Below are positions 23,562-49,217 of a stretch of 64,000 nucleotides of DNA, in pieces (positions within the stretch are counted from its first letter, which is position 1; each line of letters begins with the position of its first letter). This DNA is from an uncultured Eubacteriales bacterium. Its GTDB lineage: Bacteria > Bacillota_I > Bacilli_A > RF39 > UBA660. The position numbers and the translations under genes were made by a program. The notes beneath the pieces were generated by a model. That model was not told where the DNA came from, searched no databases, and saw only the letters and a program-made list of their open reading frames with translations. The stretch covers positions 6,582 through 70,581 of the forward strand of contig CAUTAF010000003.1 in the NCBI GenBank assembly GCA_963536495.1, in the 5' to 3' direction.

Positions 23562-25490
23562 CTACCTCTCATTTAACATTTTTAATATTTCTTTTTCTAT
23601 TGTATCATGAGTTAAATTAAAATACTCTAATATATCTTTAACTTTTCCACTTTTTCCAAAAGAATTGACAGAAAAGATATGTTTTTCATCCGTTATAGAT
23701 GTCCATGACATAGAAGAAGAAAATTCAATAACAAATTTTTTCTTATCAGTTAATATTTCTTTTTGATATTCTTCACTTTGTTCCTTAAAAATATTTAAAG
23801 CTGGCATAGATACAAGTCTTAAGTTATATCCTTTAGAACTTAAATTATCAAATATCTCTACTGCTAAGTCTAATTCTTCTCCACAAGAGATAATTACAAA
23901 ATCAACATCTTTAGTTTCTTTTAAAACATATCCACCTTTTTCTACTAAGTTTATTTGTGTTTCTTGTTTTAATTTAGTTTTATTTCTACTTGCTATTAAA
24001 CAACTAGCTTTTCTTCTTTTAAACATAGCTTTATATGAACCTATTACTTCATTTATATCACTAGGTCTATAAACATCTAAATTAGGTATACTTCTTAAAG
24101 ATACTAACTGTTCAACAGGTTGATGAGTCGGTCCATCTTCTCCAACTGTTATAGAATCATGAGTAAAAATATATATAACAAATTGATTCATAAGAGCTGA
24201 TAATCTAATACTTGGTTTTAAATAATCAGAAAATGACAAGAAAGTCGAAGCAAAAGGAACTAATCCAGATAATGCTAAACCATTACTTATTGCTCCCATC
24301 GCATGTTCTCTTATTCCATAAGCAATATTTCTATTTTTATAATTATCTTTATTAAAATATCCACTATCTGTAATATAAGCTTTAGTTGATTCTTTTAAAT
24401 CTGCACTTCCTCCTATTACAAAAGGATTTTCTTTAGCTATTAAATTAAGTACTTTATTATTTGCATTTCTTACTGCTTCATCTTCTCCATTAAGTCCTTC
24501 AAAGTTTAAATCATATCTTTTATTTAAATAATTATCCATTTCTAATTTCAAATTATCATCAAGCATTTCTACTTTTTTTAACCAATTTTCATAAACAAAT
24601 TGATTTCTTTCATCTACTTCTTTTTGAAATTCTTCTATTGTTTCTTTAGATACTAAAAATTCTTGATTTCTTAATTCTAACTTTTCTTTTAGTTGTTCTA
24701 TATCTTCTATAGAAAGTGGTGCACCATGTACTTTATGTGTTCCTTGTAATAAAGAATATTTTCCTATTACTGTTCTTATTTCAATAAGTACAGGTTTTTC
24801 ACTTCTTTTAGCTTCTTTAATAGCATTTTCTATTTCTAAAATATTTTCACCATCTTTTACAAATATATAATTCCAATTCATAGATTTAACTTTTAATTCT
24901 ATATTATCAATACTTGAATTATATAAACTACCATCAAGTGTAATTTCATTAGAATCATATAATACTATTAAATTATTAAGTTCTAAGTTACCTGCTATAC
25001 TCATAGCTTCTTGTGCTACACCTTCTTCTAAGTCTCCATCTCCTACCATACAGTATGTCTTATACTTAATTACATCATCTGTGAAGTGATTACTAAGATA
25101 TTTTTCTGCTATAGCAAAACCAACTGATGAAGCAAGACCTTGTCCAAGTGGACCAGTAGACATTTCTACTCCTAAAGTTCCTATTTCAGGATGTCCTGGA
25201 GTTTTAGAATTTAAACTACGAAATTCTTTCAAATCATCTAAATTTAAATAACCTAAATAAAAAAGTAGTGCATATAATAAACTAGATCCATGTCCTGCAG
25301 ATAAGATAAATCTATCTCTTGATATCCAATTTGGATTTTCTCTACTTATTTTTAAAACTTTTGAAAATAAAGTATAAAGCATCGGTGCTGCACCAAGTGC
25401 TATACCAGGATGTCCACTATTTGCTTTATTTATCATATCGATACAAAGACCTCTAATATTATTAATTATCTTTTTATCTATTTCTTTCAT
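23562..25490 (-). CDS. tkt: Transketolase
   Basis: GHPGIALGAAPMLYTLF TPP-binding N-terminus. 642 aa. Confidence 0.9.
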   Translation of the reverse strand: MKEIDKKIINNIRGLCIDMINKANSGHPGIALGAAPMLYTLFSKVLKISRENPNWISRDRFILSAGHGSSLLYALLFYLGYLNLDDLKEFRSLNSKTPGHPEIGTLGVEMSTGPLGQGLASSVGFAIAEKYLSNHFTDDVIKYKTYCMVGDGDLEEGVAQEAMSIAGNLELNNLIVLYDSNEITLDGSLYNSSIDNIELKVKSMNWNYIFVKDGENILEIENAIKEAKRSEKPVLIEIRTVIGKYSLLQGTHKVHGAPLSIEDIEQLKEKLELRNQEFLVSKETIEEFQKEVDERNQFVYENWLKKVEMLDDNLKLEMDNYLNKRYDLNFEGLNGEDEAVRNANNKVLNLIAKENPFVIGGSADLKESTKAYITDSGYFNKDNYKNRNIAYGIREHAMGAISNGLALSGLVPFASTFLSFSDYLKPSIRLSALMNQFVIYIFTHDSITVGEDGPTHQPVEQLVSLRSIPNLDVYRPSDINEVIGSYKAMFKRRKASCLIASRNKTKLKQETQINLVEKGGYVLKETKDVDFVIISCGEELDLAVEIFDNLSSKGYNLRLVSMPALNIFKEQSEEYQKEILTDKKKFVIEFSSSMSWTSITDEKHIFSVNSFGKSGKVKDILEYFNLTHDTIEKEILKMLNER

Positions 25491-26235
25491 TTTCTTCTCC
25501 CATCAAAATATTTATTGCTTCACTAACACCACTATCATTACTAGATGATACTATTTTAAAAACAACATTTTTTAATTCTTCACAAGCATTATCTACTGCA
25601 AACATTTTATTAACATAATAACTCATAGATATATCATTGTTACCATTTCCTATTGCATAACTTTTATCTTGATCAATTTTTAAATATTCTAATAACCTTC
25701 TTATAGCTAAACCTTTTGAATTACCTTTTAAATTAATGTCAAACAAATGATATTTTTTATATTTATTATAATAATCATGAGTAATTTGTACTTCTTTATG
25801 TAAAAAGACAAATTCTCTTATTTTATCTAAAGTCGATTTTTCAAACGGTTCATTTACCACATATGTAACTTCATATATATCATCATCTATCAAATGAGTT
25901 TTAGTTCTATATCTTGAATGAAGATAAACTACTATATCATTTTTTATAGCATAACTATATAAAATTTCTACTATATCACTTGATATATAATCGTTATGTA
26001 TAAGTTTATCTTTTGCTTTATCATAAATTATAGCACCATTACATGCTATATAATAATTAGAAAAATCATAATGTTTTAAAAAATTTTCTATTCCTACAAT
26101 TCCTCTTCCAGTAGCTAAAACAAAAATATTTTCATCATTTATCCATTTATTAATACTAGATAAATTTTTTTTAGATATACTTTTATTTTTACCTACTAAA
26201 GTATCATCTATATCACAAAAAAAGATTTTATTCAT
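25474..26235 (-). CDS. HAD-IIB (Cof-type) phosphatase
   Basis: IFFCDIDDTLV motif I. ATGRGI. 253 aa. Confidence 0.7.
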   Translation of the reverse strand: MNKIFFCDIDDTLVGKNKSISKKNLSSINKWINDENIFVLATGRGIVGIENFLKHYDFSNYYIACNGAIIYDKAKDKLIHNDYISSDIVEILYSYAIKNDIVVYLHSRYRTKTHLIDDDIYEVTYVVNEPFEKSTLDKIREFVFLHKEVQITHDYYNKYKKYHLFDINLKGNSKGLAIRRLLEYLKIDQDKSYAIGNGNNDISMSYYVNKMFAVDNACEELKNVVFKIVSSSNDSGVSEAINILMGEENERNR

Positions 26236-26274: not shown

Positions 26275-26529
26275 TTATCTATAAAAATCTTTTTTATTAT
26301 TTTTAATTAAATAATTGTTATAACTAATTCTTTCTTCTTTTATTTTAGTATTTATTTCTTTTAATTCTTTTATTTCTTCTGTAAGTAAATCTATTTTTCT
26401 ATTATAAAAAAGTATTTGTTTATAATCAGATGCTTCTATAGCAAAATATCTTAATTTTTCTATTTCCTTATTTCTTACACCAGATAATAAATCATATCTT
26501 ATTTTAAATAATTTATCTAATTTTTCCAA
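26275..26529 (-). CDS. Hypothetical protein (84 aa)
   Basis: ORF only. Confidence 0.35.
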   Translation of the reverse strand: MEKLDKLFKIRYDLLSGVRNKEIEKLRYFAIEASDYKQILFYNRKIDLLTEEIKELKEINTKIKEERISYNNYLIKNNKKDFYR

Positions 26530-26532
26530 TTT

Positions 26533-27213
26533 TTAAAAATTATCATCATCAAAGTCGTTTAAAAACTCATCTTCATAATAATCGTTATCAACTTCTTTTT
26601 CTTTTGGTTTTACTTCAACATTCTTAACTTTTCTTGCAATAACTACTTCATCTTCATCTTTTATATTATCTTCTTTTAATACTAATTCATTATTTCTTAT
26701 ATATTTATATATTTTAATACCTACTAATACTGGATAAATAATAGTAATAATAAACATAATAACAAAGAATAAATAATTATTATTACCTAAAATATTTTTA
26801 TAATTAGCTGTATCTTTAAATAATAAAATATGTGATAAAACAATCATTAAAAATGTTGTAATTAGTACTATATATTTTTTAAAACTATTATTTTTAACTA
26901 AGTAAGTTACATAACTATCAACGCTTACTTCAAATAAAGAATATATATTCACTGTAAAAATTATTAAATATAAAAGATAAAATATACTTCTTACGTTATT
27001 AGCTTTTTCTAAGTCATATTTTTCTTGTAATACACTATACAAAAAATCACTTTTTATAAATAAATATGCTAAAAATGTAATAGCTATAAATATTAATAAT
27101 GATTTAGAAAGCTCTACTAAAGCTTTGTTATCACTTTCTTTTTTTTCTATATAATTTCCTATAATTAAATCTAATATAAATACTGCAATAAAAAAACATA
27201 TGTAAAATATCAT
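26533..27213 (-). CDS. Hypothetical polytopic membrane protein
   Basis: Multiple hydrophobic helices and an acidic C-terminal tail. Confidence 0.45.
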   Translation of the reverse strand: MIFYICFFIAVFILDLIIGNYIEKKESDNKALVELSKSLLIFIAITFLAYLFIKSDFLYSVLQEKYDLEKANNVRSIFYLLYLIIFTVNIYSLFEVSVDSYVTYLVKNNSFKKYIVLITTFLMIVLSHILLFKDTANYKNILGNNNYLFFVIMFIITIIYPVLVGIKIYKYIRNNELVLKEDNIKDEDEVVIARKVKNVEVKPKEKEVDNDYYEDEFLNDFDDDNF

Positions 27214-27269
27214 ATTAAACCCCCAAACTTGCTATTTATTATACTTAATTTTTAAAAAAATGCAACTTT

Positions 27270-28043
27270 TTAAGCATTTTCTATCTTTTCTAAAATATAT
27301 TTATTTTGTTTTTCATTATATTTAAATACTAATATAAAACTACTATCACTTTCTTTGTTATCAAAGTACTTTTTATAATAATATTTAATAATATTTTTAT
27401 TTTTTTCTATATGATAAAGTTTATTAAGTAAAAACTTTTTATTATTTAAATAAATACAAGATAAACTATTATCTTTATATTCTAAAACTTTATTAGTATC
27501 AAAAGATATCTTCGTTAAAAAATAATCAATCTTTATCTTAACGGCATATTTTTCATAAAATTTTTCTTCTAAATAACTTTTATCTACTATTTTCTTATCG
27601 CAATCATATAAAGCATTATTTTTTAAATAAGTTTTAAAAAAACTACTAATATTTAATAATAATGTTTTATCTTTTTCACTCATATCTTTTAAATTTAACT
27701 CTTTAGCTGTAAAAAACTTAGATTCTTTATATTCATCTTCATATAAGAATTCCAAATGATAATCATTAACTAAATCAATTGCTTCTTTATTGTTAGTTAA
27801 GTTAGTTTCAGTAGTTAAATATAGATTATTTTGATTTACTTTTTTTACTATGTTAGTTTTTTGATTTAGATTTTTCTTTTTAAATATAAAACCATTTATA
27901 TAAAGAAAAGCAAAAACAAAAAGAAAAATGAAAAAGCTTACAAAAACTATAAGAAATCTTATCTTCTTTAACTCTTTTTCCCTTTCTTCATCAGTTAAAA
28001 CTTTTTTTTCTAAATTTTTTATATCATCAAAATTATTTTCCAT
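27270..28043 (-). CDS. Hypothetical protein with an N-terminal TM anchor
   Basis: ORF. FLIVFVSFFIFLFVFAFLYI. Confidence 0.45.
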   Translation of the reverse strand: MENNFDDIKNLEKKVLTDEEREKELKKIRFLIVFVSFFIFLFVFAFLYINGFIFKKKNLNQKTNIVKKVNQNNLYLTTETNLTNNKEAIDLVNDYHLEFLYEDEYKESKFFTAKELNLKDMSEKDKTLLLNISSFFKTYLKNNALYDCDKKIVDKSYLEEKFYEKYAVKIKIDYFLTKISFDTNKVLEYKDNSLSCIYLNNKKFLLNKLYHIEKNKNIIKYYYKKYFDNKESDSSFILVFKYNEKQNKYILEKIENA

Positions 28044-28052
28044 TTTATCCTC

Positions 28053-28466
28053 TTATTTTTTAAAAACAAATATTTTTGAAAACAAATAATTTAATACTAC
28101 AATTATAAATTGAACTAGTATCTTTGCAATCTTATCATTTATCTTTAAAACAGCTGTAAGTATTAACATTACTAACATTTCAATTAATAAAGACATTATT
28201 CTTGATGTAATAAACTTAACTGATTCTATTTTTTTTGAATTATTCGATTTAAAAACAAATATTCTATTAGCAAAATATGCAAATGTTACTGCTACTATCC
28301 AAGAAAACACGGTTGATATTTGAACATTTAAAGATGTATCTGATTTTAATATAGTTCTAATTAGAAAATAAGATAATATTGATATAACTGTAGTTATACC
28401 CCCTACTACTATATAATTTATTATTTCTTCATATTTTTTATATAAATTTAAAAGTTTTTTAATCAT
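28053..28466 (-). CDS. GtrA-family membrane protein (polysaccharide/teichoic-acid glycosylation flippase-like)
   Basis: IINYIVVGGITTVISILSYFL is typical of GtrA. 137 aa with 4 TM helices. Overlaps the GT2 gene. Confidence 0.65.
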   Translation of the reverse strand: MIKKLLNLYKKYEEIINYIVVGGITTVISILSYFLIRTILKSDTSLNVQISTVFSWIVAVTFAYFANRIFVFKSNNSKKIESVKFITSRIMSLLIEMLVMLILTAVLKINDKIAKILVQFIIVVLNYLFSKIFVFKK

Positions 28467-29403
28467 TAGTATTAATTCTCCTAATTATATATTGAGGTCT
28501 ATTCTTAGTATCACTATCTATTAATTTTATATAACTCATAATTAAAGATAAAACAAAGATATTAATAGATGTCATAATTAATATTAAAAATATTACAATA
28601 TCTAATTTATCTATACCTAAAAAAGTTTTTATTATTAAAAATATAATAGATATTAAAAATAATACAGATGCTATTAATTTAATAAGTGATAAAAATATAT
28701 TAGTGAAATTTTTAAAACCTAGTAAAGCATATGAAAATAAGCTAAAGAAATTCCAAGATGTCTTCCCTTCTTTTCTTGTTTCTACTTCATAAGGCATATA
28801 ATAAATATTAAATCCTACATAAGAAAATATTCCTTTAGAAAATCTATTATGTTCTTTAATAGAGATTATAGCATCAAGAACTTCTTTTCTAAACATCCTA
28901 AAGTCACTTACTCCATTTTTAAATTCAACTTCACTAAATGTATTAATAATCTTATAAAAACTTTTCTTAAATATAGATAATATTCCTTCTTTTCTTTTCT
29001 TTTGATAACAGGCTACTTCATCTATTTCTTTATTTTCATTTAAATATTCATACATTTTCAATAAATATTTAGGATTTTGTTGTAAATCAGCATCAATTAT
29101 AGATATATAATTAGCATCTTTTCTAACATTTTCTAAACCTGCTAACATAGCACTTTCTTTACCAAAATTTCTTGAAAAATTAATACATTTAATTTTAATA
29201 TCTTTATTTTTTAATAATTTTGATAATTCTTCTTCTGTTTTATCTTTTGATCCATCATTTACAAAGATTAATTCTAAATCTATATTTTTTAATTCTTCTT
29301 TAATCTTTTCATAAAATTTAGCTATATTTTTTTCTTCATTATAACAAGGTACAATTACAGATAATTTTTGTTTCATAACAACTCCATAATAAAAATATAT
29401 CAT
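28459..29403 (-). CDS. Family 2 glycosyltransferase (GtrB/CsbB-like polyprenyl-phosphate sugar transferase)
   Basis: LSVIVPCYNEEKNI, DGSKDKT and DADLQ motifs. Two C-terminal TM helices. Confidence 0.75.
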   Translation of the reverse strand: MIYFYYGVVMKQKLSVIVPCYNEEKNIAKFYEKIKEELKNIDLELIFVNDGSKDKTEEELSKLLKNKDIKIKCINFSRNFGKESAMLAGLENVRKDANYISIIDADLQQNPKYLLKMYEYLNENKEIDEVACYQKKRKEGILSIFKKSFYKIINTFSEVEFKNGVSDFRMFRKEVLDAIISIKEHNRFSKGIFSYVGFNIYYMPYEVETRKEGKTSWNFFSLFSYALLGFKNFTNIFLSLIKLIASVLFLISIIFLIIKTFLGIDKLDIVIFLILIMTSINIFVLSLIMSYIKLIDSDTKNRPQYIIRRINTND

Positions 29404-29411
29404 TATTTTTA

Positions 29412-30515
29412 TTAATTTTCTATATATTTAATCTCTACTCTTTTTTTAATACCACATAATATATCACAATTAATAGTATTAAGTTTTTTAGATATTTCAT
29501 CTATTTTTATATTATCACCAAATAATTCTACAACATCTCCTACTTTAACATCAAGACCTGTTACATCTACCATCATATGATCCATACATATTCTTCCTAA
29601 AATATTACATTTTTTATTATTTATATATACATAAAAATCATTAGATAAAGCTCTTGGATATCCATCTGCATAACCTATAGAAACTACTGCTATCTTAGTT
29701 GGTTTATTAGTAGTATAAAGTCTAGAATATGATACTTTAGTATCTTTTTTAACTGTTTTTATAGAAATAACTCTACTATATAACTTAACAACCGGATAAA
29801 ATTTCATATCACTTATATTTCTATAATCATCTCTTACTGTCATTCCATACATAATGATACCAGGTCTTACATAATCAAATTTTTCTTTATAATTTAAAAT
29901 ACCATGACTTGCAAATAAATGAGCATATAGATGATTTATATTTTTACTTTTTAATAATTCTAATAAGTTTTTAAAGTTTTTTATTTGCATATCACTATAA
30001 CTAGTGTCAAAATCATCTGATGAAGATAAATGAGAATAAATTCCTGTAATATTTATATTAGAGAAATTAAAAGCTTTTAAAATTTCATCTATTTCTTTTT
30101 GTTCATCATTATACATAAAACCAAGTCTAGTCATACCAGTATCAATTTTTAAATGAGCATTGATTTTAAAATTCTCTTTTACTAAATAGTTATTAAGACT
30201 TTCTAATTCATCTAACGAATACACCGCTAAAGTAAAATTATTGTTTTTTAATAAATGATATTCTTCTTCAAAAACTTTAGACAGTATTAAAATTTCTTTA
30301 TTTATATTATTTTTTCTAAGTTCTAAAGCTTCTTGTATACTACAAACTGCAAAAAAATCTATCATTTGTTTTTCTAATGTTTGAGCAATTTTAACAGCTC
30401 CCAAACTATATGCATCGCTTTTTATAACAGCAATTATATTTGTCTTAGTTAATCTTTTTATTTCTTCTACATTTTTTATTATGTTCTTTAAGTTTACTTC
30501 CAAGTAACTTCTCAT
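29412..30515 (-). CDS. alr: Alanine racemase
   Basis: AVIKSDAYSLGAVKIA (PLP-lysine region). 367 aa. Confidence 0.85.
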   Translation of the reverse strand: MRSYLEVNLKNIIKNVEEIKRLTKTNIIAVIKSDAYSLGAVKIAQTLEKQMIDFFAVCSIQEALELRKNNINKEILILSKVFEEEYHLLKNNNFTLAVYSLDELESLNNYLVKENFKINAHLKIDTGMTRLGFMYNDEQKEIDEILKAFNFSNINITGIYSHLSSSDDFDTSYSDMQIKNFKNLLELLKSKNINHLYAHLFASHGILNYKEKFDYVRPGIIMYGMTVRDDYRNISDMKFYPVVKLYSRVISIKTVKKDTKVSYSRLYTTNKPTKIAVVSIGYADGYPRALSNDFYVYINNKKCNILGRICMDHMMVDVTGLDVKVGDVVELFGDNIKIDEISKKLNTINCDILCGIKKRVEIKYIEN

Positions 30516-32919
30516 TATTTTTTTCCTTCCATAGTAAATATAAATAAACTATAAAAGATATAAATGTTATTATTAAAGATTCTTTCTTTAAAGGAGAAGT
30601 GAATTTTAAAACAATACTATGTTCTCCTTTAGGAACTTTAAATCCAACAAAAGCTTTATTAACTTTTTCTACCTCTACTTCTTTTTTATCAATATATGCT
30701 TTAAATCCCTTATCATATGGAATACTAGTTATAAAATAACCATCTTCTTTAAGACTTACTTTAGAAGTAAATAAAGAATCTTTATATTCAACATTTAACT
30801 CTTTTTGTTTTAATATATTAAAATCTTTAATTTCATATATTTCATAATCTTTTATATAATATTTACCTTTTTTTATTTTTATATTTAAAACATCACTAGT
30901 AGTTAGATAGTCAAAAGTATAATTTTTATTATGATATTTCCAACTCTTACAAGTTAATTTATTTCTTATATTATTAATATCTATATAAGTATCTTTACTT
31001 TTACATGAAGGAGAATCATACATATTTATTCTTACAAATAATGTTTTAACTTTTCCTAAATTAATACTATATTTTTTATCTTTTTCTTCTAGATATTCAC
31101 CTGTTTTAACTAAATTAATATCATTAATCTTTTCTGTTTTTAAATCAATTTCATTTTTAGCTTCTTTTACTACATCATAGTTCATTAAAGATAAAGGTTT
31201 TTGATAATATTTTAACTTATCATAATATTCTTCACTTATTAAATTATTACTAAAATAAAACATCGGTTTATATTCTTCATTTAAATAAATATTATAATTA
31301 TCTATTTTTTTAATTAATTTTTTATTTATTAAAGTAGTTTTAGTAACTATATATTTATTTGATAATGAAGATAAATAATAATCAGATAATGTCGTAGTAG
31401 TTATTACCCTATTTCTATGTTTAATATTATTTAATAATTCTTCATAATAAAAATTACTATAATTTTTATTATTCAAAGAAGAATATATTGTAGATATCAA
31501 AACTTCACTATTATCAAATATTTGGTTTATAAATGCTTCATTTTTATAATCTATTGCAATTCTATATAAAGATTTATCATTTTCTTTAATATAATTAACT
31601 ATATTTTTCAAACTTTGATAATCTTTATCAAAAGTCTTTTTATCAACTAATGGATCATTTAATGAAAAAATTAAACAAATACTAATTACAAGAAACATAA
31701 TAGTATTTAAAATAAAATCTTTTTTAAATTTTTTATATAAAAAGAAAACTATAGATAATACTATTAAATCAATATATATATACATAGTTGAATTAATTAT
31801 AGATATAGCAGTTATTAACATTATAAAAATAAGTTCTTTATTACTTATTAGATTTTTAGTTAATTTACTTAAAAAATTAGCAATAACTAATATAATAAGT
31901 GGTAAAAATGGTATTAATATTTTTGCATCAATATACATTAAAGCATTTAATATATAATTAAATACTGGAAATAACATTATTAAAAATAATATTATAGATA
32001 AAAATTTATATTTTAAATCTTTAGATATCAAACTATATATTATAGCTACGATAGAAATTAAAGTTAAACCTATTCCATATGGATTATATAAAAAATATAA
32101 AAGATTAATTTTAGGAATTAAAGTTTCTATAAAATTAATTGCTACACTAGTTTTTTCTCTTCCATTTAATATTACTGCTGCTGTTGGTAAAAGTACTATA
32201 GAACTTAAAAGTATTCCATGTATAAAATTTAGTGATAAGTTTAAAAGTTTAAAAAACAAATCTTTTATAACTATTTTTTCTTCTTTTTCTAAATATTTAA
32301 ATATATAGTAAATTATTAAAACTAGATATGATGATATAGAGTAATAAAAACTAGATATCGCTATTAAAAATATTGATATAACAAGTAACGAACTTTCATT
32401 TTTATCATACTTTTTATCTATTCCAAAAAGACCTAGTATTAAAAACGGCATATAATTTATAAACATAATATGTCTATGTGAATGAAAAGAAAGCGACATA
32501 GAAAATATAAATAATATAGTTGTCATAAAAGAAATCTTTTCATCATATCTTTTTCTTAACCAAATATATGTAAGTATTGCAGATATTATAGGTATTAACA
32601 TTCCAATTACCGATATAAAATCTACCATCTTTATAAATGGTAAAAAATATGAAATAAGGATATAAGGATTAAAAAGTCCATAATATGATAAATAATAAAT
32701 ATTTTGACCTGCTCCTATATTTAAAATAAAATCAGGAAAAAGATTAAAATTTTGATAGAACAAAGTTCTAATTGTATTAGGTATTGCTATATGTTGAGCT
32801 TCCCAATCAAGTAAAGATCCATAATAATTAGTAAATCTAGTTATTATTAATACAAAGATTAAAAAAGTTATAATAATTATAACTAGATTTAACTTATCTT
32901 TTTTGTTTAAACTCTTCAT
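30445..32919 (-). CDS. Large polytopic membrane protein, YfhO-like (putative glycosyl carrier-dependent glycosyltransferase)
   Basis: 824 aa with more than 12 TM helices. Lies next to GtrA and GT2, as in GtrA/CsbB/YfhO three-component glycosylation systems. Its 3' end overlaps alr by 71 nt. Confidence 0.45.
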   Translation of the reverse strand: MKSLNKKDKLNLVIIIITFLIFVLIITRFTNYYGSLLDWEAQHIAIPNTIRTLFYQNFNLFPDFILNIGAGQNIYYLSYYGLFNPYILISYFLPFIKMVDFISVIGMLIPIISAILTYIWLRKRYDEKISFMTTILFIFSMSLSFHSHRHIMFINYMPFLILGLFGIDKKYDKNESSLLVISIFLIAISSFYYSISSYLVLIIYYIFKYLEKEEKIVIKDLFFKLLNLSLNFIHGILLSSIVLLPTAAVILNGREKTSVAINFIETLIPKINLLYFLYNPYGIGLTLISIVAIIYSLISKDLKYKFLSIILFLIMLFPVFNYILNALMYIDAKILIPFLPLIILVIANFLSKLTKNLISNKELIFIMLITAISIINSTMYIYIDLIVLSIVFFLYKKFKKDFILNTIMFLVISICLIFSLNDPLVDKKTFDKDYQSLKNIVNYIKENDKSLYRIAIDYKNEAFINQIFDNSEVLISTIYSSLNNKNYSNFYYEELLNNIKHRNRVITTTTLSDYYLSSLSNKYIVTKTTLINKKLIKKIDNYNIYLNEEYKPMFYFSNNLISEEYYDKLKYYQKPLSLMNYDVVKEAKNEIDLKTEKINDINLVKTGEYLEEKDKKYSINLGKVKTLFVRINMYDSPSCKSKDTYIDINNIRNKLTCKSWKYHNKNYTFDYLTTSDVLNIKIKKGKYYIKDYEIYEIKDFNILKQKELNVEYKDSLFTSKVSLKEDGYFITSIPYDKGFKAYIDKKEVEVEKVNKAFVGFKVPKGEHSIVLKFTSPLKKESLIITFISFIVYLYLLWKEKNNEKLLGSKLKEHNKKCRRNKKIN

Positions 32920-33598
32920 TATTCATCCAATCTTCATAAGGTATTAACTTTTCAAAAGCTATCATATGATAAAACATTTTTTTTATAAATCCTTGTGATT
33001 TATAAATAGATAATATTCTTTTCTTTTCTTCTAAATCTTCTTTTGGCATAGGATTATGATAATCTATAATAGATTTTCTCTTATACATATTAAAGTAATA
33101 AAGTTTATTATGATCTACTACTTCACTAACTATTTTACTAGTCATTTTATGATGCATATGTCCATATTCTCCATATGGATTATGTACTACTACCTTTTTC
33201 CAATTTTTTAATTTATATATTTTTTCTACATCTTCCTTTATTCTAGGATATTCTTTTTTCCAATTACTTCTCATATTCATAATCTTATCTGGATATCCAA
33301 GCATATAATATTTATCTTTAGTTTCTTTCATTACTTTTTTAAATTCTTTAACTCTTACCTTGTTACTACCACAAGTAATACATACTACTAGATAATTATT
33401 CTTAATAAGTTCTCTTCCACCCCAAAGCATTTCATCATCAGGATGTGCTACAAACATTAAATTATCAACACCATTTAAATTAAGTTTTTCATAACCATCT
33501 CTTTTTCTAAAAAACAAAAAATAAATACTAGCAAATGCCATTATAACAAATGATATTTTTAAAGTTATAATCAATATATTTTTTTTCAATTTCATCAC
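32894..33598 (-). CDS. PIG-L/LmbE-family N-acetylglucosaminyl deacetylase
   Basis: LMFVAHPDDEMLWGG motif. N-terminal TM. 234 aa. Confidence 0.7.
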   Translation of the reverse strand: MMKLKKNILIITLKISFVIMAFASIYFLFFRKRDGYEKLNLNGVDNLMFVAHPDDEMLWGGRELIKNNYLVVCITCGSNKVRVKEFKKVMKETKDKYYMLGYPDKIMNMRSNWKKEYPRIKEDVEKIYKLKNWKKVVVHNPYGEYGHMHHKMTSKIVSEVVDHNKLYYFNMYKRKSIIDYHNPMPKEDLEEKKRILSIYKSQGFIKKMFYHMIAFEKLIPYEDWMNNEEFKQKR

Positions 33599-33616
33599 CT
33601 AAATAAAATTATACTC

Positions 33617-34303
33617 CTAGTTATTAAATGAAACAAAATTATTGTTTCTAAGTTTCAAATATCTAGTAAATAAGATATATGAAACAGTAAATAAACAGAA
33701 AACATAAAATACAACAAATAAACTAATATCAGAATTTGTCATACTTAAGCTAATAAGTAAATTATATAATCCATGTAAAATAGTAGGTATTAAAAATGCT
33801 AAAAAGATATCAGTAATAGAATTTAAATATTTAGAATTAACTTGATTATCTTTAGCATATCCTAAAAAATAACCCATAATAACACCTAAAGCAAAGTGAA
33901 TACCACAAGACATAACTGATCTTAAGACGATTTCTATCAGATCAAGTTTTAAATCATATATATAGATTATGTTTTCTACAAAAATAAATCCTAAAGCTAA
34001 AAAGGTAGAATAAACTATAGAATCGTATATTTCATCAAATTCCATAGCATTAAAACACATTAAAAAGAGTACTATAAACTTAATAAATTCTTCTTTAAAT
34101 CCTATAAACAATAAATTTTTTAAAACTATATTATTTACTACTATAGGTTTAATAAATTCACTAACTGTATAAGAAAATATTGCACTAAATATCCCCCCTA
34201 GTAATAAAAGTATAATCATATATAAAGATTCTTTATGTTTATCTTTTTTATAAATAAAAAGTGTAAGTAATAGTACTGGTAAAAAACCTATTATTATTTT
34301 CAT
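33617..34303 (-). CDS. PrsW-family intramembrane metalloprotease-like protein
   Basis: EEFIK, FVENIIY and HGLYN motifs in TM helices (EExxK / FxxxE / HxxxN pattern). Confidence 0.5.
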   Translation of the reverse strand: MKIIIGFLPVLLLTLFIYKKDKHKESLYMIILLLLGGIFSAIFSYTVSEFIKPIVVNNIVLKNLLFIGFKEEFIKFIVLFLMCFNAMEFDEIYDSIVYSTFLALGFIFVENIIYIYDLKLDLIEIVLRSVMSCGIHFALGVIMGYFLGYAKDNQVNSKYLNSITDIFLAFLIPTILHGLYNLLISLSMTNSDISLFVVFYVFCLFTVSYILFTRYLKLRNNNFVSFNN

Positions 34304-34611
34304 TTTATATCATCAATAAATTTCTTTAATTGTTTTGAATCTCTACCTAATACTATTTTTAATTTATTATCTATTTCTACTATACCTTTAGCTCCTAGCT
34401 TTTGTATTCCTTCTTTATTAACTATAGATATATCTTTTAAAGTAACTATAAATCTAGACATATTATAACTACTATCTATTATATTATCTTTACCACCAAG
34501 ATATTCTAATAACTTATTCATATTTAAATTAAAATCTGCTTTATTTATTTTTAATACTGTAAACAATATAATTATTAGTATTAATATAACTATATAATAT
34601 TCTGTTCTCAT
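34300..34611 (-). CDS. Hypothetical small protein with an N-terminal TM
   Basis: ORF, overlap-coupled on both sides. Confidence 0.4.
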   Translation of the reverse strand: MRTEYYIVILILIIILFTVLKINKADFNLNMNKLLEYLGGKDNIIDSSYNMSRFIVTLKDISIVNKEGIQKLGAKGIVEIDNKLKIVLGRDSKQLKKFIDDIK

Positions 34612-35459
34612 TTTTTCTCCTTACTCTTCTTTTTTGTTTCTTTTTTAACTTCTTTTACTTCTTCTTTTATCTCTAATTCTTCTTGTTTTTCTTCTTTTTC
34701 TTCATATTTATCTAAGAAATTATCTTCTGTAACTATTCCTTTTTTCTTTATTTTATATAAATTAATAAAATAAAGCACTACTAATACAAGCATAATAAAT
34801 ATTAAAGTTACTAAAGTATATAAAGTTAATTCTTGCATGTATTCTGAATAGTTTAAAAGTAAATTATTTAAATAACTTGCCCAAACATTACCTACAAAAC
34901 TTATAAATTTTGGAATAAAAGTTATTAATAAATTAACTATAAAACAAATAAATAAAATTATCGCAATATTAGAAAATGTTTTAGAAGTAGATTTATTAAT
35001 AATCATAAACATAATAAACATAAAAATAAGTATTACTATTATAGCTATTACTATTTCTTTTAATGCTATTTTTTCTATTTCTTTAAATATACCTACTTTA
35101 TATCTTTTTACTTGATTTATAATTTTTTCTTCTACTAAAGTTTTTTCATAAAAATGTTTATCTAATTTTTCTAACTTTAATTTATCTTTTATATATTCTC
35201 TATCTATTAAAGCATCTTTGTTATTAATAACATCAATAATAAAGTCATCTATTTTTTTATCAATATTTATTACTTCTACTTCTCCAAGTTCTTTAAAAAA
35301 TTCATAAACAAAATTTTTATTATTTTTAGCATACTCAATTTTTTCTACATTTTTTCTTATATTTTCACTACTATTAACTAATTTAAATATATATAAATTA
35401 CTTAATAAAAGTAATGTAACTATAAAAATAAACGATAATATTTTATTTAAAATTTTCAT
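34608..35459 (-). CDS. Hypothetical membrane protein with a K/E-rich C-terminal tail
   Basis: ORF with several TM helices. Confidence 0.4.
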   Translation of the reverse strand: MKILNKILSFIFIVTLLLLSNLYIFKLVNSSENIRKNVEKIEYAKNNKNFVYEFFKELGEVEVINIDKKIDDFIIDVINNKDALIDREYIKDKLKLEKLDKHFYEKTLVEEKIINQVKRYKVGIFKEIEKIALKEIVIAIIVILIFMFIMFMIINKSTSKTFSNIAIILFICFIVNLLITFIPKFISFVGNVWASYLNNLLLNYSEYMQELTLYTLVTLIFIMLVLVVLYFINLYKIKKKGIVTEDNFLDKYEEKEEKQEELEIKEEVKEVKKETKKKSKEKK

Positions 35460-35950
35460 ATTTTTCTCCTACTTTCTATAATTTTATCAAATTCCTTTAA
35501 ATCTTCTTTATTATAAGACCACATTAAAATTTCCATAAAGTTATCACTATCTTCAAATAAAAAGCATTTCATATAATAAGTTTTTTTATTTTTAGTAAAT
35601 GTAAATGTATATGAATTATTATTTTCTTTTATCTCTAGATTTTCTTTATCTTTTTTATTATCTTCTAGTTTATAATTTTTATAAAAATTAAAATCATTTT
35701 TAAAATTATTTTTATTATCTATAAAAACAGTTATTATTTTAAAATTAGTTTTATCCATATAAACTATATCAGTTAAAGGATTAACTTTTTCTTTATCTAT
35801 TTTTTCATATTTTTCATCAATTAATAACTCATAATTATTACTAGTTTTTATTCTTTTTAGATTGCTATTATTAAAATTAGTAAACAAATAAGAAATAGTA
35901 ATAAACATAATTCCTAAGACTAAAAATAGATTTATTATTCTTTTCTTCAT
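35456..35950 (-). CDS. Hypothetical secreted or membrane-anchored protein
   Basis: N-terminal LFLVLGIMFITISYLF. Confidence 0.4.
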   Translation of the reverse strand: MKKRIINLFLVLGIMFITISYLFTNFNNSNLKRIKTSNNYELLIDEKYEKIDKEKVNPLTDIVYMDKTNFKIITVFIDNKNNFKNDFNFYKNYKLEDNKKDKENLEIKENNNSYTFTFTKNKKTYYMKCFLFEDSDNFMEILMWSYNKEDLKEFDKIIESRRKI

Positions 35951-35970
35951 ATACTAAAAGTATAACATAA

Positions 35971-36003
35971 AAATTAAAAAAGATAGAAAATTCTATCTTT
36001 TCA
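35971..36003 (-). terminator. Intrinsic terminator closing the giant-protein operon
   Basis: aaaaagatagaa-aa-ttctatcttttt: a perfect 8-bp stem with A/T runs on both sides. Confidence 0.6.
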
Positions 36004-36007
36004 TCTC

Positions 36008-36487: not shown

Positions 36488-39400
36488 TTATTTTCTTCTA
36501 ATATCTTTTTTTATTTCTAAAGCTTTATTAAACATATTTATTTGTTCATCATTTAAAGATAATAACATGATATCTTTATCTTCTTTTATTTGATTTATCG
36601 CCATATTAATTTGTAATAAAACACTATCTTCTATATCGATAATTTGATTTTTATTTATTATTTTTTTATTAAATAATAAATCTGCTATTTTAACTGTCTT
36701 ATCATCACTATCATAAAGAATTGCAAAATTAGGATTCATTACAACTTTTGTAGTTTGAGGATTTAAATTATGTTTAATAGCTAACTTAGTAATAAATAAG
36801 TTAGATTCTTCTACTTTATAATTAGTATTTTTGGTAATATTTTCAAGTTCTTGATAAGTATTAAAACTCTTAAAATTACTATCGTTATATTCAATATATT
36901 CATCATTATAGATATATAAATTATCAAGATTATATTCTTTATCTACTGTTTTTTCATCTAATAAAACATATTGATTTTTAGAATCATCTAAATCTAATTT
37001 TCTATTTAATATAACTGGTTCATATTTAATAGGTTCTTTTATATTATATTCTTTTTCTAAAGTTAAATTTTCTTCTAAAACTTTATATATATCGTTATTT
37101 CCTCTACCTATCGTAATTTTCTTAAGTCTTAAAGCTTCATATTCTTCTTTAGTTATCTTTTTTTCTTCTAATAATTTTTGATAAGTTTCTTTATCGAGTT
37201 TTATTAATTCCTCTGCTGCTTTTTTATATACTTCAAATATTTCTTTATTTAAAGCTTCTTTAGTTTTATTAACTTCTCTATTAATTGCTTTATTTGGTAC
37301 TTCGATGTTATCAAAACATAATGTGTCCCCATTTCTCCATACCCAACTTTCTGCAACTAAATGACCTACTTTATCTTTTACAACAAATATTCTTCCATCG
37401 TTATCTATCATACTATGTTCCATACAGGTTTCACCACGACCTGATAGTTTTTGACAACAATCACTAAATACACCTACTGTTAATGCAAATGGATCATCTA
37501 ATCTTAATATTTCATAATCATAATCATCATGTGAATTTTCTACTCTAACTATACTACTTAAAGTTCTTTTTCTACCTAAATTATAAATTTGTTGTAATAC
37601 TTCAAAATCTTTTTCTTTATAACCTGCTATTAAAGATGTTCTAGCTAAAGCTTCATTACCAACATTAATATCTTGATAACTTGCACTTGATATATAAGAA
37701 AGTGCATGATTTAATGTTAATTTTCTATTACTATTCATTATTTCTATTTCTCTAAAACTTTTAGCAACTTTATTTAACATTTCTAATTTTTCATTGTTAT
37801 TATTTAAAATAATATTTAAATTTTTTAAAAAGAATTCTCTAAAACCAGGATTATTTTCATATAAGAAATCTTTAAATATTTTTTCTAATTTATTTGGGGT
37901 AATTATAGGTAATTCTTCATACTGTTCTAAAATATTTCTAAATACTTTAGATGTCTTAGTTGCATAATCAAAATTAATATTTAAAGAACAATTGTGATTT
38001 TCATCTTCTGTATAAAATCTTTCAAAGAGCTTATCTTCATCAAATTCTACTTTATCCTTTTTTAAAGATAAAATTAAATCTTTTTTATATTTAGTATTAA
38101 TATCTTTTTTAAGTTCTTCTAATATAAAAGAATAATTACTTGATATAGTTTTAGGAATATATGTAAGTATAGAATATAACTGGTCATATCCTTTACTATC
38201 TTGATCAAAAACTCCAAATAAATAAGAAGCTTTTATTAAAGATATTATTTTATCTTCACTATTTGAATAAGTTTTAAGTCTCATTAAATTAGACCAATAT
38301 TTACCTGATAATAAAAAACTATCTATATCATTTTCTGGAAATTTCATCATTACTGTTTTATTAGGTATAAAAGTTTCTCCAGTTTTCTTATACCATTTTT
38401 CTAATTTATCAATTCTTACTTTATCTATCATAGATATTACATCATCAGTACTTTTAAGAGCTAGTTTTATTCCATTTTCTATTCCAAATCTATTAAAATA
38501 TTCTTTTATATCATTATGTATACTAGGATTTTTTAAAAGAGCCAGTTTAATTTGATTTTTTGTTAAATAACTTTTCCACTCATTATAATTTTCTTTTAAT
38601 ATTTTTAAATCTAAATATCTATTATTAGCATAAAAATATTCTTTTAATTCTTTTGGAGCATTTTCATCTATAAATAATTCTTTATGTTTATCTTTTAGAA
38701 AAATTTTACTATCTTCTTCATATATGAAGTCTCCAGATAAACATTTTTGAGAAATAACATTCATTATTTTTTCTTCTAAATTATTATAATCTTTAAACTT
38801 TTTAATATCTTCAATACTTATAGCTTCTAATAATTTACCATACTTTTCACCTAAAGTTAAAAATGCATCTTTTCCTAAACTTAGAATAAAATCATTATAA
38901 TTATCATTTTTTTGAAAGAATAAGAATAATTTTTTATGTTTTAAATATTCTTTTAACTCTGGATATTTTTTTATGTAATCTAAACTTAACCTTCCATTAT
39001 AACATAGATTTTTTAAATGTTCATTTTCTTCTTTTGTTATATTTAAAACATCTTTAAAATCGACGAATATTTCTGGATATTTATTTTTAAAATTAATATT
39101 TTTTTCTAGTGTTCCATAATTTATATTTTTATTAAATAAAGATGCTTTACCAGTTAAGATAAAATTATAAACACTTTGTTCTATCTTTTCATTTAATTTA
39201 TCAAATTGATAAAAATCATCTAATGTTCTAACATTTAAACCATTCTTAATAAATGGTCCATAACTTGTCCATAATTTTAAAAAATTATAATTACCATAGG
39301 TATTAATATATTCTTTTACAAAATCAAAATTATAATCATTAAAAAGATAAATAATTGGTAAATCTAATACTTTAAATAAATCTTTATTCTTTAATTCTTC

Positions 39401-40510
39401 TATATATTCTTCTTTTTGATATAAAGTTATAGTATTTAAATTTCCTTCATTAAATAATGTTTTTAACTCTTTACTATTTTCATCATTTATAAAAATCAAA
39501 GGGTATTTATCATGTAATAAAGATGTTACACTAGTATAATCTAAGATATCTTTATAAGATTTTTCTTCTCTTGTTTTTTCTAAATAAGAAACAAAGTTTT
39601 TTTCAAAATCATCATAAGTTTTAAAAGATTTAGTAAAATCTATTATATCGTAATTTCTTAATACATAATCTTTAACTATATCAAATATTTTAAAATTACT
39701 TTTACTAAATATTTTAGTATCATTTTCTAATTTTTTTAAATATTCTACATTAAAATACTGAATAAATTTTTCTGTTTGAACATTTTTTAAAAAATCAAAA
39801 TCCAGGTAATCTAATAAATCACTAGTATTAGTAATATCTGTTTTAAAATTAAAGTTTAAACATTCTGCCCACTTTGGAAATTTAAAATCATGATTATTAG
39901 TTAAATAATCTATTATAAATTTTTTTGCAGTTTTAATAGTTGATATTTCAAGATTACCTTCATTTTTAAAAAAATAATTAAAAATTATTAAATCTCTTCT
40001 TCTACTAAGTTCACTAAAAAAGTCTTGATATTTTAAAATAATTTTTTGATATTCTCCAGGTTTATAATTTTCTTTTACAGTTAATGGTATTTCAACTTCA
40101 TTTAATAAAAAATTATCTATTGCTATATTTTTAAAAACATCCTGATACTTTATGAAATCTTCTACTGATAAACTTCTAGCAAAATAATCTTTTTTAACAT
40201 CTTCTGGTATATCTTCATTTATTAAAAATAAATCTTTATTTTTAATAATATCTTTTTTAGAATATTTATTTATGTCAATCTTTTCATCATTAAATAATAT
40301 TTCTTCTCTTATCTTATTATCAAATGATATATCTTTTAATTCTTCATAAGGAATATCACTTAAATCATAAGAAAACAAATCATCTTCTAAACCAGAATAC
40401 ATCACTAAATAATTATTTTTTAGATTAATATTACTTTCATGATCTATTTCTTTTTTTAAATTTAAAAGTTCTTTCTTTTTATTTTTAAATTCATCGATAG
40501 TTAACTTCAT
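36488..40510 (-). CDS. Giant hypothetical cytoplasmic protein (1340 aa), no recognisable domain
   Basis: Uninterrupted ORF with no TM helix, signal peptide or P-loop. The C-terminal third has a Cys/His-rich block: DDPFALTVGVFSDCCQKLSGRGETCMEHSMIDNDGRIFVVKDKVGHLVAESWVWRNGDTLCFDNIE. Confidence 0.6.
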   Translation of the reverse strand: MKLTIDEFKNKKKELLNLKKEIDHESNINLKNNYLVMYSGLEDDLFSYDLSDIPYEELKDISFDNKIREEILFNDEKIDINKYSKKDIIKNKDLFLINEDIPEDVKKDYFARSLSVEDFIKYQDVFKNIAIDNFLLNEVEIPLTVKENYKPGEYQKIILKYQDFFSELSRRRDLIIFNYFFKNEGNLEISTIKTAKKFIIDYLTNNHDFKFPKWAECLNFNFKTDITNTSDLLDYLDFDFLKNVQTEKFIQYFNVEYLKKLENDTKIFSKSNFKIFDIVKDYVLRNYDIIDFTKSFKTYDDFEKNFVSYLEKTREEKSYKDILDYTSVTSLLHDKYPLIFINDENSKELKTLFNEGNLNTITLYQKEEYIEELKNKDLFKVLDLPIIYLFNDYNFDFVKEYINTYGNYNFLKLWTSYGPFIKNGLNVRTLDDFYQFDKLNEKIEQSVYNFILTGKASLFNKNINYGTLEKNINFKNKYPEIFVDFKDVLNITKEENEHLKNLCYNGRLSLDYIKKYPELKEYLKHKKLFLFFQKNDNYNDFILSLGKDAFLTLGEKYGKLLEAISIEDIKKFKDYNNLEEKIMNVISQKCLSGDFIYEEDSKIFLKDKHKELFIDENAPKELKEYFYANNRYLDLKILKENYNEWKSYLTKNQIKLALLKNPSIHNDIKEYFNRFGIENGIKLALKSTDDVISMIDKVRIDKLEKWYKKTGETFIPNKTVMMKFPENDIDSFLLSGKYWSNLMRLKTYSNSEDKIISLIKASYLFGVFDQDSKGYDQLYSILTYIPKTISSNYSFILEELKKDINTKYKKDLILSLKKDKVEFDEDKLFERFYTEDENHNCSLNINFDYATKTSKVFRNILEQYEELPIITPNKLEKIFKDFLYENNPGFREFFLKNLNIILNNNNEKLEMLNKVAKSFREIEIMNSNRKLTLNHALSYISSASYQDINVGNEALARTSLIAGYKEKDFEVLQQIYNLGRKRTLSSIVRVENSHDDYDYEILRLDDPFALTVGVFSDCCQKLSGRGETCMEHSMIDNDGRIFVVKDKVGHLVAESWVWRNGDTLCFDNIEVPNKAINREVNKTKEALNKEIFEVYKKAAEELIKLDKETYQKLLEEKKITKEEYEALRLKKITIGRGNNDIYKVLEENLTLEKEYNIKEPIKYEPVILNRKLDLDDSKNQYVLLDEKTVDKEYNLDNLYIYNDEYIEYNDSNFKSFNTYQELENITKNTNYKVEESNLFITKLAIKHNLNPQTTKVVMNPNFAILYDSDDKTVKIADLLFNKKIINKNQIIDIEDSVLLQINMAINQIKEDKDIMLLSLNDEQINMFNKALEIKKDIRRK

Positions 40511-46500: not shown

Positions 46501-46664
46501 TGGTGAATTCCAGGCATACCATTAGCAGTTGCAGGTCCATCATAAAAAACAAAATTTTTATCTTTTCCTTGATTACTTTTATTTAATATATCGTGTTCAT
46601 CCCAGTAGTTATATAGTTTTTCATTAACTACACTAACTTTTTCTTTATCAAGTTCTTTAAACAT
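43572..46664 (-). CDS. ileS: Isoleucine--tRNA ligase, type 2 (eukaryote-like/mupirocin-insensitive class). The start was corrected to MFKELDK.
   Basis: GMPGIHHMMAKLL (HIGH), KMHKSRGN (KMSKS-like), WAISRSRYWGTPIP and C-terminal Zn-ribbon Cys pairs. The track ORF's first 19 codons (MVPRHFAL...) are the T-box sequence itself. The true start has the RBS GAGGAGG. Confidence 0.9.
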   Translation of the reverse strand: MFKELDKEKVSVVNEKLYNYWDEHDILNKSNQGKDKNFVFYDGPATANGMPGIHHMMAKLLKDSVCKYYSMNGYKVDRRVGWDTHGLPVEVAVEKALGFSGKGDIEKYGIEAFNKKCKDSVLANEAAFVDFTHKMGQLIDTKNPYITYDNSFIETEWWILKEYYKAGLIYEGFKILPYCPRCGTGLASHEVAQGYKNVSVNSVYIPFKLKDEDSYFLVWTTTPWTLIANVALCVNPEETYVKVESKGYKFILAEKLVEKVIGSEYKVIEKYSGKDLEYKEYEQLIPSIKMTKKAFIVTNDTYVTMEDGTGIVHMAPAFGQDDYDVCLRYDLELINPVNSEGKYKEGLWKDRFVLDPQLEIDIIKYLKENDKLFKKQKIEHNYPHCWRCSTPLMYYASPSLYIKTTAYKDDVIKANKTVNWFPSYVGEKRFGNWLENMVDWAISRSRYWGTPIPLWKCSCGHQEMIGSIEELKEKAVEEIKDIDLHRPYVDNIHIKCEKCGKEMTRIPEVMDCWFDSGAMPFASCHYPFENKDFFEKHFPADFICEGIDQTRGWFNSLLLISVFLKKKAPYKNVLVNDLVLAKDGSKMHKSRGNAVNPFGALEEFGADAIRWFFLSASPVWTPLRYDEEGVKEINTKMFSTLKNTYNFFSMYANIDSINPSSYEINDEDLEEIDRWIISKYNNLIKYIESSMKEFDLTKVVKKITNFVNDDLSNWYIRRNRKRFWSKVEGNELSKKVVYKTTYNILLGLSKLIAPFSPFLAEEIYMNLTNKESVFLDSYPVCEDKYIDLKLEEKMDLVRDLITLGRTVRENSKIKIRQPLRRAILDISNKEIIGDLIDLIKEELNIKEIEFVSDMSNYMNISIKPNFKELGPKFGKNIKLVSDILSNLEEKDVKSLASGKEIVISVLGDDYTINSDLVEVRVDVKENYNAARIYDTYIILDTNITKELEEEGIAREIISKIQNIRKTQDFNVVDRIVVNYNTNEELVKKAISNYQDVIKRETLSDEVNLTDYKENNYDINGYEVYIEVLKK

Positions 46665-49053: not shown

Positions 49054-49055
49054 CA

Positions 49056-49132: not shown

Positions 49133-49135
49133 AAC

Positions 49136-49211: not shown

Positions 49212-49217
49212 AAAATA

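Follow-up and report, generated by a model that had tools for sequence, protein, structure and literature searches.

The 64-kb window analyzed here, a stretch of 64,000 nucleotides from contig CAUTAF010000003.1, carries a block of 12 densely packed minus-strand open reading frames (ORFs) between positions 26275 and 35950, as taken from the ORF list of the window (Table 1). Four of the predicted products are a YfhO-family glycosyltransferase of the GT-C type, a membrane-anchored PIG-L (LmbE) deacetylase, a GT2 glycosyltransferase, and a small membrane protein of the GtrA family. Across the related loci that we compared, only PIG-L, YfhO, GT2, and GtrA recur together. GT2, GtrA, and YfhO form a three-component system that is already known and that stands here among unrelated neighbors; the conserved coupling of PIG-L with YfhO is what we found described nowhere. 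Judging from the sequences, the core of the block is probably a four-component extracytoplasmic system that would add an N-acetylhexosamine (HexNAc) to a teichoic-acid-like polymer or a surface protein and would de-N-acetylate that HexNAc.

The host is an uncultured gut Bacillota (Firmicutes) bacterium. Homologs of its YfhO at 97 to 100% identity are found on many metagenomic contigs, and a sister species stands at ~74%; beyond the sister species, identity is ~40%, in uncultured gut metagenome-assembled genomes (MAGs) labelled “Bacilli,” “Tenericutes,” or “Mollicutes bacterium.” The window also encodes a MraY equivalog, an alanine racemase (Alr) equivalog, undecaprenyl-diphosphate synthase (UppS), and a glucosaminidase, and the host therefore makes peptidoglycan and uses undecaprenyl phosphate.

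Table 1 Features of the block and of its upstream boundary (TM, transmembrane)
Feature	Position	Strand	Length	Match or other evidence
YfhO-family GT-C glycosyltransferase (predicted)	30445..32919	-	824 aa	PF09586 8.5e-38, residues 12-785
Membrane-anchored PIG-L/LmbE (CE14) Zn-deacetylase (predicted)	32894..33598	-	234 aa	PF02585 1.7e-9
GT2 polyprenyl-phosphate glycosyltransferase (CsbB/GtrB/ArnC type), C-terminal TM helices	28459..29403	-	314 aa	PF00535 1.1e-31
GtrA-family small membrane protein, putative lipid-linked-sugar flippase	28053..28466	-	137 aa	PF04138 1.1e-21
Alanine racemase	29412..30515	-	367 aa	Ala_racemase_N 6e-58, Ala_racemase_C 7e-45
PrsW-family intramembrane protease	33617..34303	-	228 aa	PF13367 3e-28
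Membrane-tethered EIIB-like protein of the phosphotransferase system (PTS), N-terminal TM helix	34300..34611	-	103 aa	PF00367 1.5e-8
h283, multi-TM protein with Lys/Glu-rich tail	34608..35459	-	283 aa	No Pfam/NCBIfam match above cutoff
h164, signal-anchored protein, first gene after the upstream terminator	35456..35950	-	164 aa	No family match
h257, single-TM protein with extracytoplasmic domain of ~200 aa	27270..28043	-	257 aa	No family match
h226, multi-TM protein with acidic C-terminal tail	26533..27213	-	226 aa	No family match
h84, coiled-coil-like ORF with TTG start, gene status uncertain	26275..26529	-	84 aa	Sub-threshold FlgN match
Intrinsic-terminator-like hairpin with U-run	35962-36006	-		11-bp stem, dG -10.3 kcal/mol, z = -3.1

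Layout and boundaries of the block

Neighboring genes in the block overlap by 4, 4, 4, 26, 71, and 8 nt and are otherwise separated by gaps of 3 to 57 nt. The initial annotation of this DNA had counted 14 genes in the run; there are 12 ORFs between the same coordinates, and the gaps are too short for any further genes. All of the families that it had named (GtrA, GT2, alanine racemase, YfhO, PIG-L, and PrsW) score above their Pfam gathering scores, and the YfhO assignment, which it had left to profile searches, holds over the full length of the protein. It had also drawn attention to a co-directional run of overlapping genes; the tight packing is real, but the shared strand reflects the background of the window, in which GC content is ~22%, nearly all genes lie on the minus strand, GC skew is uniformly negative, and only three non-overlapping plus-strand ORFs of at least 100 aa occur in the entire 64 kb. 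Because co-directionality and tight packing are both the norm across the whole window, neither carries a signal.

The upstream hairpin lies 3′ of a DUF5684 gene, which it plausibly terminates, and it marks the 5′ boundary of the block's transcription unit. Only 1 of 200 shuffled sequences folds equally well, in agreement with the terminator previously placed at 35971-36003. At the downstream edge of the block (position 26275), we found no convincing terminator (shuffle test, z = -0.1); the next strong hairpin with a T-run in that direction lies near 22136, past genes for a HAD phosphatase, a transketolase, and a Big_2 protein. Terminators were located with a custom scan for hairpins followed by T-runs, scored as z values against shuffles, as a standard scan requiring at least three G-C pairs is uninformative at 22% GC.

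The four recurring genes

In YfhO, we recognize ~13 TM helices and an extracytoplasmic, beta-rich domain of ~330 aa; the protein ends in a TM helix. No solved structure was matched by its sequence, and the best Protein Data Bank matches of its AlphaFold2 model (predicted local distance difference test [pLDDT] 77, predicted template modeling score [pTM] 0.78) are the GT-C enzymes AftD, STT3, AglB, PglB, and AftA. Residue D38, part of an LDWE motif in the first extracytoplasmic loop between the helices at residues 6-27 and 37-57, is invariant in 16 sequences, and H146, H148, R149, and H150 are also invariant. The 3′ end of the gene overlaps the start of alr by 71 nt (30445-30515). Some population variants of the protein (P0070-P0074) are 801 aa long and lack the Lys-rich tail, which looks dispensable.

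The PIG-L gene overlaps the start of yfhO by 26 nt, and its product matches PF02585 at 38.7 bits (gathering score, 28.2). The motifs AHPDD(E/D), YPDK, and GEYGHxHH are invariant across 12 homologs, as are residues A51, H52, P53, D54, D55, H147, and H150 in the homolog alignment, and the profile aligns both metal-binding motifs to the MshB structures 1q74 and 4ewl (1.3e-5 to 2.2e-5). The protein thus falls into the same Pfam family as the LmbE-like (CE14) de-N-acetylases of N-acetylglucosamine (GlcNAc) conjugates, PIG-L, MshB, and BshB, with its AHPDDE and HxxH motifs aligning to those of MshB. MshB and BshB act in thiol biosynthesis as soluble proteins of the cytoplasm, whereas the subfamily in the window is membrane-anchored, has a domain predicted to lie outside, and is linked to YfhO in its genomic context. 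Each of its homologs has one TM helix, at the N terminus, and eukaryotic PIG-L is anchored in the same way. Among 25 homologs, net charge averages +3.1 in the N-terminal flank and +0.36 in the 15 residues after the TM helix; this bias predicts an N-in/C-out topology, with the catalytic domain outside the membrane. The subfamily has no match among NCBIfam models.

GT2 aligns full length (residues 12-308) to the GtrB structure 5EKP (1.9e-48) and to ArnC (4e-23). The GtrA match covers 116 of the 117 profile positions of PF04138.

Gene neighborhoods

We compared the locus in two directions. A forward set of 87 loci was assembled from a YfhO-profile scan with one genome per species (80 loci) and from exact protein look-up (7 loci), and a reverse set of 80 metagenome loci, of which 68 were informative, came from a PIG-L-profile scan of metagenome contigs, for a total of 167 related loci. 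Sister-species loci (L001, L008, and L088) keep the entire block together with its housekeeping flanks and, since those flanking genes are conserved too, are uninformative on function. At ~40% identity, three independent relatives retain only the adjacent PIG-L-YfhO pair, and all of the surroundings differ.

PIG-L adjoins YfhO in 28 of the 87 forward loci, upstream in 25 and downstream in 3, the latter all Lachnospiraceae MAGs (L058, L059, and L082). In ~24 forward loci, GT2 abuts the 3′ end of yfhO and is usually followed by GtrA; GtrA lies 3′ of GT2 in 19 of the loci found through YfhO (coded -YGA in 13, ?YGA in 4, and PYGA in 2). Five loci have the order PIG-L-YfhO-GT2 without alr (L013, L014, L020, L047, and L073). 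Starting from PIG-L, YfhO was found at a distance of 500 nt or less in 54 of the 68 informative loci, co-directional in 31 and divergent in 23, and one further locus (L156) has GtrA between the two genes. GtrA and GT2 often stand behind YfhO in the divergent loci. The start and stop codons of paired PIG-L and YfhO genes often overlap, the GC content of paired loci in the reverse set spans 21 to 55%, and after de-replication at 60% identity, the pairing is present in 16 of 24 clusters. Unbiased clustering of the neighbors within 4 kb of the pairs returned GT2 (23 loci), a response regulator (22), a histidine kinase (20), and GtrA (18) as the four most frequent families. PIG-L is thus a conserved neighbor of YfhO across many lineages, which lends strong comparative support to the earlier suggestion that glycosylation is followed by deacetylation.

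The two regulatory families trace to a sub-lineage in which GT2-GtrA-YfhO is divergent from PIG-L, and an OmpR-type response regulator and a histidine kinase follow 3′ of PIG-L (L115, L119, L121-L128, L135, L139, L141, L144, and L149-L154). This arrangement suggests that the module is under two-component control in that sub-lineage.

Relation to known glycosylation systems

The module belongs to the CsbB/GtcA/YfhO class of multicomponent transmembrane glycosylation systems. CsbB, GtcA (GtrA), and YfhO of Bacillus subtilis, Staphylococcus aureus, and Listeria monocytogenes (PMC5836110, PMC7389260, PMC8035078) represent the same three families, and the presumed order of action is shared with the module: GT2 acting on undecaprenyl phosphate, GtrA as the flippase, and YfhO as the GT-C transferase outside the membrane. 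Unlike those systems, the module has a membrane-anchored PIG-L/LmbE protein as a conserved extra partner of YfhO and, in the genus of the window, has alr inserted between YfhO and GT2. The PIG-L partner is absent from any described system of this class; a 2021 review of such systems leaves deacetylase, glucosamine, PIG-L, and LmbE all unmentioned (PMC8035078), and our literature search found no paper that links PIG-L/LmbE with YfhO.

Proposed mechanism and alternatives

From family membership, fold, motifs, conserved gene linkage, and the topology indicated by charge, we infer each chemical step, the sugar, and the acceptor as follows. GT2, by homology to GtrB, CsbB, and ArnC, would load undecaprenyl phosphate with an N-acetylhexosamine taken from its UDP-sugar, on the inner side of the membrane. 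MraY and UppS, both encoded in the window, indicate that lipid-carrier envelope chemistry is present. GtrA would flip the lipid-linked sugar, and YfhO, in keeping with its family and fold, would pass it on, outside the membrane, to an acceptor in the envelope, which may be a teichoic-acid-type polymer or a Ser/Thr-rich surface protein. The membrane-anchored PIG-L, its catalytic domain predicted to face the outside of the cell, would then strip off the N-acetyl group, acting either on the sugar after its transfer or on the lipid-linked donor once flipped; the conserved gene pairing, the intact catalytic motifs, and the predicted N-in/C-out topology argue for this step. The outcome would be a free amine, adding positive charge to the envelope. 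The HexNAc is most likely GlcNAc, because the characterized enzymes named YfhO in the table of the 2021 review all transfer GlcNAc (PMC8035078) and PIG-L enzymes act on GlcNAc conjugates.

Several observations weigh against this mechanism. YfhO stands alone, without PIG-L, in 31 forward loci, and YfhO is missing from 13 of the 68 informative PIG-L loci; the two genes are thus not obligately coupled. Moreover, relatedness among the gut MAGs means that many of the loci are phylogenetically non-independent. The topology of PIG-L was predicted from the positive-inside rule only, and in the PIG-L of the window itself the charges are near balance: the stretch ahead of the TM helix carries +3 and the stretch behind it a net +1. 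A single-sequence AlphaFold2 model of PIG-L has low confidence (pLDDT 66) and an alternating beta/alpha core, and its fold search with Foldseek was uninformative, returning generic Rossmann folds only. The sugar is not readable from the GT2 sequence, and the best named relative of GT2, PgfS, belongs to a protein O-glycosylation system.

ArnC/ArnD/ArnEF/ArnT, for 4-amino-4-deoxy-L-arabinose (L-Ara4N), and Francisella FlmF2/NaxD/FlmK, for galactosamine (GalN), are Gram-negative pathways of lipid A amino-sugar modification, and Arn is under the control of PmrAB. Their logic is shared by the module in that a GT2 on undecaprenyl phosphate, an amine-unmasking deacylase, a flippase, and a GT-C transferase would lead to a cationic envelope sugar, and the two-component system that adjoins the PIG-L/YfhO pair in one sub-lineage recalls PmrAB control. 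GT2, which matches ArnC structures over its full length, is the only homologous component. The deacylase is a PIG-L/CE14 protein, as opposed to the CE4 enzyme ArnD or the YdjC-type NaxD, and the GT-C enzyme is of the YfhO family rather than ArnT/PMT_2; because both are non-homologous, the module would work like Arn/NaxD without being a member. The deacetylase domain is also predicted to be outside instead of in the cytoplasm, and the host is a Gram-positive-type Bacillota bacterium without lipid A.

These pathways suggest an alternative order of steps, in which PIG-L would turn undecaprenyl-phosphate-linked GlcNAc into its glucosamine counterpart and YfhO would then transfer the amino sugar. 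ArnC/ArnD/ArnT and FlmF2/NaxD/FlmK set precedents for pairing a GT2, a lipid-sugar deacylase, and a GT-C transferase, and the full-length match of GT2 to ArnC fits this order, as does the membrane anchor, which would keep PIG-L close to the lipid donor on the membrane. The eukaryotic PIG-L enzyme, moreover, uses lipid-linked GlcNAc (PF02585 family definition). Deacylation in Arn and NaxD is cytoplasmic, however, whereas this PIG-L domain is predicted to face outward, even if it could act on a flipped donor. The data do not distinguish the donor from the product as the substrate of PIG-L, and we regard deacetylation ahead of transfer as somewhat unlikely.

Alternatively, the acceptor could be protein and not teichoic acid, in which case the module would O-glycosylate surface or membrane proteins where they are rich in Ser and Thr. 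Streptococcus mutans Pgf (PgfS/PgfE/PgfM1/PgfM2) and GtrB/PgtC2 likewise combine a GT2 with a YfhO-family GT-C enzyme to transfer HexNAc or glucose extracellularly, and the YfhO-family proteins PgtC2 and PgfM1 glycosylate Ser/Thr-rich disordered regions (PMC12041528). The best NCBIfam matches of our proteins point the same way, PgfS for GT2 and PgfM2 for the C terminus of YfhO, but both are far below the equivalog cutoffs (203 versus 500 bits and 42 versus 1500 bits, respectively). Unlike Pgf, the block has no epimerase (PgfE) or adhesin genes and has PIG-L instead; none of its genes encodes a Ser/Thr-rich extracytoplasmic protein, and the beta-rich ectodomain of YfhO resembles the carbohydrate-binding region of AftD (PMC8035078). 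We consider a protein acceptor in place of teichoic acid unlikely, though still a serious rival.

A third possibility is that the pairing is inherited synteny only, with PIG-L uncoupled from YfhO and acting, for example, on peptidoglycan or on a small-molecule GlcNAc conjugate. It is true that one broad group of uncultured Bacilli MAGs supplies most of the loci, that ~20% of the PIG-L loci are without YfhO, and that flanking genes differ among loci. Yet the pairing persists while all of its surroundings change, in three arrangements (upstream, downstream, and divergent) and over the whole GC range given above, Lachnospiraceae included, with frequent start/stop overlaps and with GT2 and GtrA co-recruited, which makes passive inheritance improbable.

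The proposal of the initial annotation that all 12 genes constitute one dedicated, lineage-specific pathway of glycosylation, deacetylation, and regulation by PrsW, with six hypothetical proteins as accessories, is very improbable and is largely refuted by synteny: its tight packing, translational overlaps, upstream-only terminator-like hairpin, and retention in the sister species at ~74% YfhO identity are offset by sister loci that conserve housekeeping flanks as well, by a strand bias and close packing that are typical of the entire window, by an EIIB-like protein that is conserved independently in varied contexts, by a block without a sigma or anti-sigma factor as PrsW substrate, and by PrsW, alr, h164, h283, h257, h226, and h84, none of which stands beside the module in ~160 distant loci outside the genus of the window. 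In the block, several units have come to lie side by side by chance, and the 12-gene run combines three of them. Apart from one four-gene, probably functional core, most of what looks like a tidy 10-kb operon is juxtaposition, in a genome that is gene-dense and biased to one strand.

We return to the four-component glycosylation and de-N-acetylation system as the preferred reading. In Gram-positive bacteria, sugar decoration of teichoic acids and surface proteins by GT2, GtrA, and GT-C proteins affects phage binding, immune recognition, and stress tolerance. We put forward tentatively, as a possibility rather than an expectation, that PIG-L/YfhO with GT2 and GtrA is a widespread, previously undescribed pathway of gut Bacillota that installs a cationic, de-N-acetylated hexosamine on teichoic acids or surface proteins. 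If so, the outward-facing deacetylase partner would predict that abundant uncultured gut bacteria carry free-amine sugars on their envelopes, and surface charge would be modified there by a route distinct from D-alanylation. Such a pathway would be a Gram-positive counterpart to lipid A amino-sugar modification, possibly two-component-controlled in some lineages, and could modulate the charge of the cell surface, how well the cell withstands antimicrobial peptides or lysozyme, and how host lectins recognize it. It also offers a candidate function for a PIG-L subfamily that has no name in the NCBI curated protein models.

Other genes of the block

Alr is a TIGR00492 equivalog (371 bits; cutoff, 168). 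Its gene lies between YfhO and GT2 only in the window, L001, and L008; elsewhere, GT2 directly abuts YfhO. We judge alr to be a housekeeping gene inserted in this genus and outside the module. A role as a dedicated supplier of D-alanine to the module was considered and rejected in view of the housekeeping equivalog match, the nearby MraY, and a linkage confined to this genus.

The PrsW translation contains the motifs EExxK (KEEFIK) and HxxxN (HGLYN). No adjacent PrsW was found in ~160 other loci, where the single PrsW (L063) is 8 kb off and on the opposite strand, and no sigma or anti-sigma domain of the kind expected for an RsiW-type substrate is present among the 12 block proteins or the flanking genes. 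With linkage to the module limited to L001, L008, and L088 and no anti-sigma substrate in the block, PrsW was rejected as a regulator of the module, and the earlier idea of control by PrsW proteolysis falls with it.

Of the six proteins once listed as unassignable, the 103-aa one can be assigned as PTS-EIIB-like. The position of the active-site Cys, as aligned to PtsG IIB structures, is Asn in 10 of 12 members and Thr or Lys in the other two (P0178 and P0214); it is never Cys. The distribution of charges suggests that the domain is cytoplasmic. The family has >5,800 cluster representatives at 66 to 77% identity in varied gene contexts (relatives P0159-P0278 and L168-L171), and this level of identity spans gut Bacilli MAGs whose YfhO proteins share only ~40%. 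The initial annotation had named wide conservation of the hypothetical proteins apart from the glycosylation genes as a finding that would refute its reading; this is what we see, and widely, for the 103-aa protein. The 257-aa protein is a genus-restricted orphan.

The locus L168 has the order DnaB_2, seryl-tRNA synthetase (SerRS), an h283-like gene (7e-7), the EIIB-like gene, and PrsW, with other genes in between SerRS and the h283-like gene and on either side of the EIIB-like gene, so that PrsW stands three genes after the latter. The window has the matching order DnaB_2, SerRS, further genes, h283, EIIB-like, and PrsW. Because L168 mirrors the window, the four upstream genes of the block (h164-h283-EIIB-like-PrsW) form a separate, SerRS-proximal synteny backbone.

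Searches for the remaining hypothetical proteins returned few relatives. Just 11 relatives of h283 were found in 1.84 billion representatives, and a search of 5.8 billion proteins gave just 8 homologs of h257, none of them below 66% identity. Within the 167 compared loci, to which the absences of h164, h226, and h84 refer, homologs of h164 occur in L001, L008, and L088 only and those of h226 in sister-species loci only. The short h84 is conserved in L001 and L008 (1e-33) and is annotated as merely 53 aa in L001. We conclude that h257, h226, and h84 are genus-specific orphans.

Surroundings of the block in the window

Directly downstream of the block lies a gene for a Cof-type HAD-IIB phosphatase (25474-26235, minus strand). 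A HAD gene also follows PIG-L/YfhO on the downstream side, immediately or at a short distance, in several distant loci (L026, L090-L092, L006, and L004). The HAD matches near YfhO in distant loci are weak (1e-18 to 1e-21) and HAD paralogs are numerous; the recurrence could be a coincidence among many paralogs or could reflect an accessory enzyme. Just upstream of the block, a 1340-aa protein (36488-40510, minus strand) has no Pfam or NCBIfam match and is kept in sister-species loci.

The window has a second envelope deacetylase, unrelated to PIG-L: a CE4 polysaccharide deacetylase that also carries a surface Ig-like domain (57062-58444, plus strand) and whose gene adjoins that for undecaprenyl-diphosphate synthase (56302-56982, minus strand). 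Further features of the window are a T-box leader (46698-46877, minus strand) upstream of a class I tRNA synthetase gene (43572-46724), a cluster of seven minus-strand tRNA genes (48969-49470), and one plus-strand tRNA gene (48195-48268); the interval 3553-3634 (minus strand) was grouped with these features. On the minus strand, a 664-aa protein (18442-20436) has no family match, and a 1005-aa protein (59800-62817) has a weak leucine-rich-repeat match only. In relatives of the MAG group, CotZ spore-coat genes and SpoVS lie near the compared loci (L170, L171, L004, and L006), which hints at spore formation in some of these small, AT-rich gut Bacilli.

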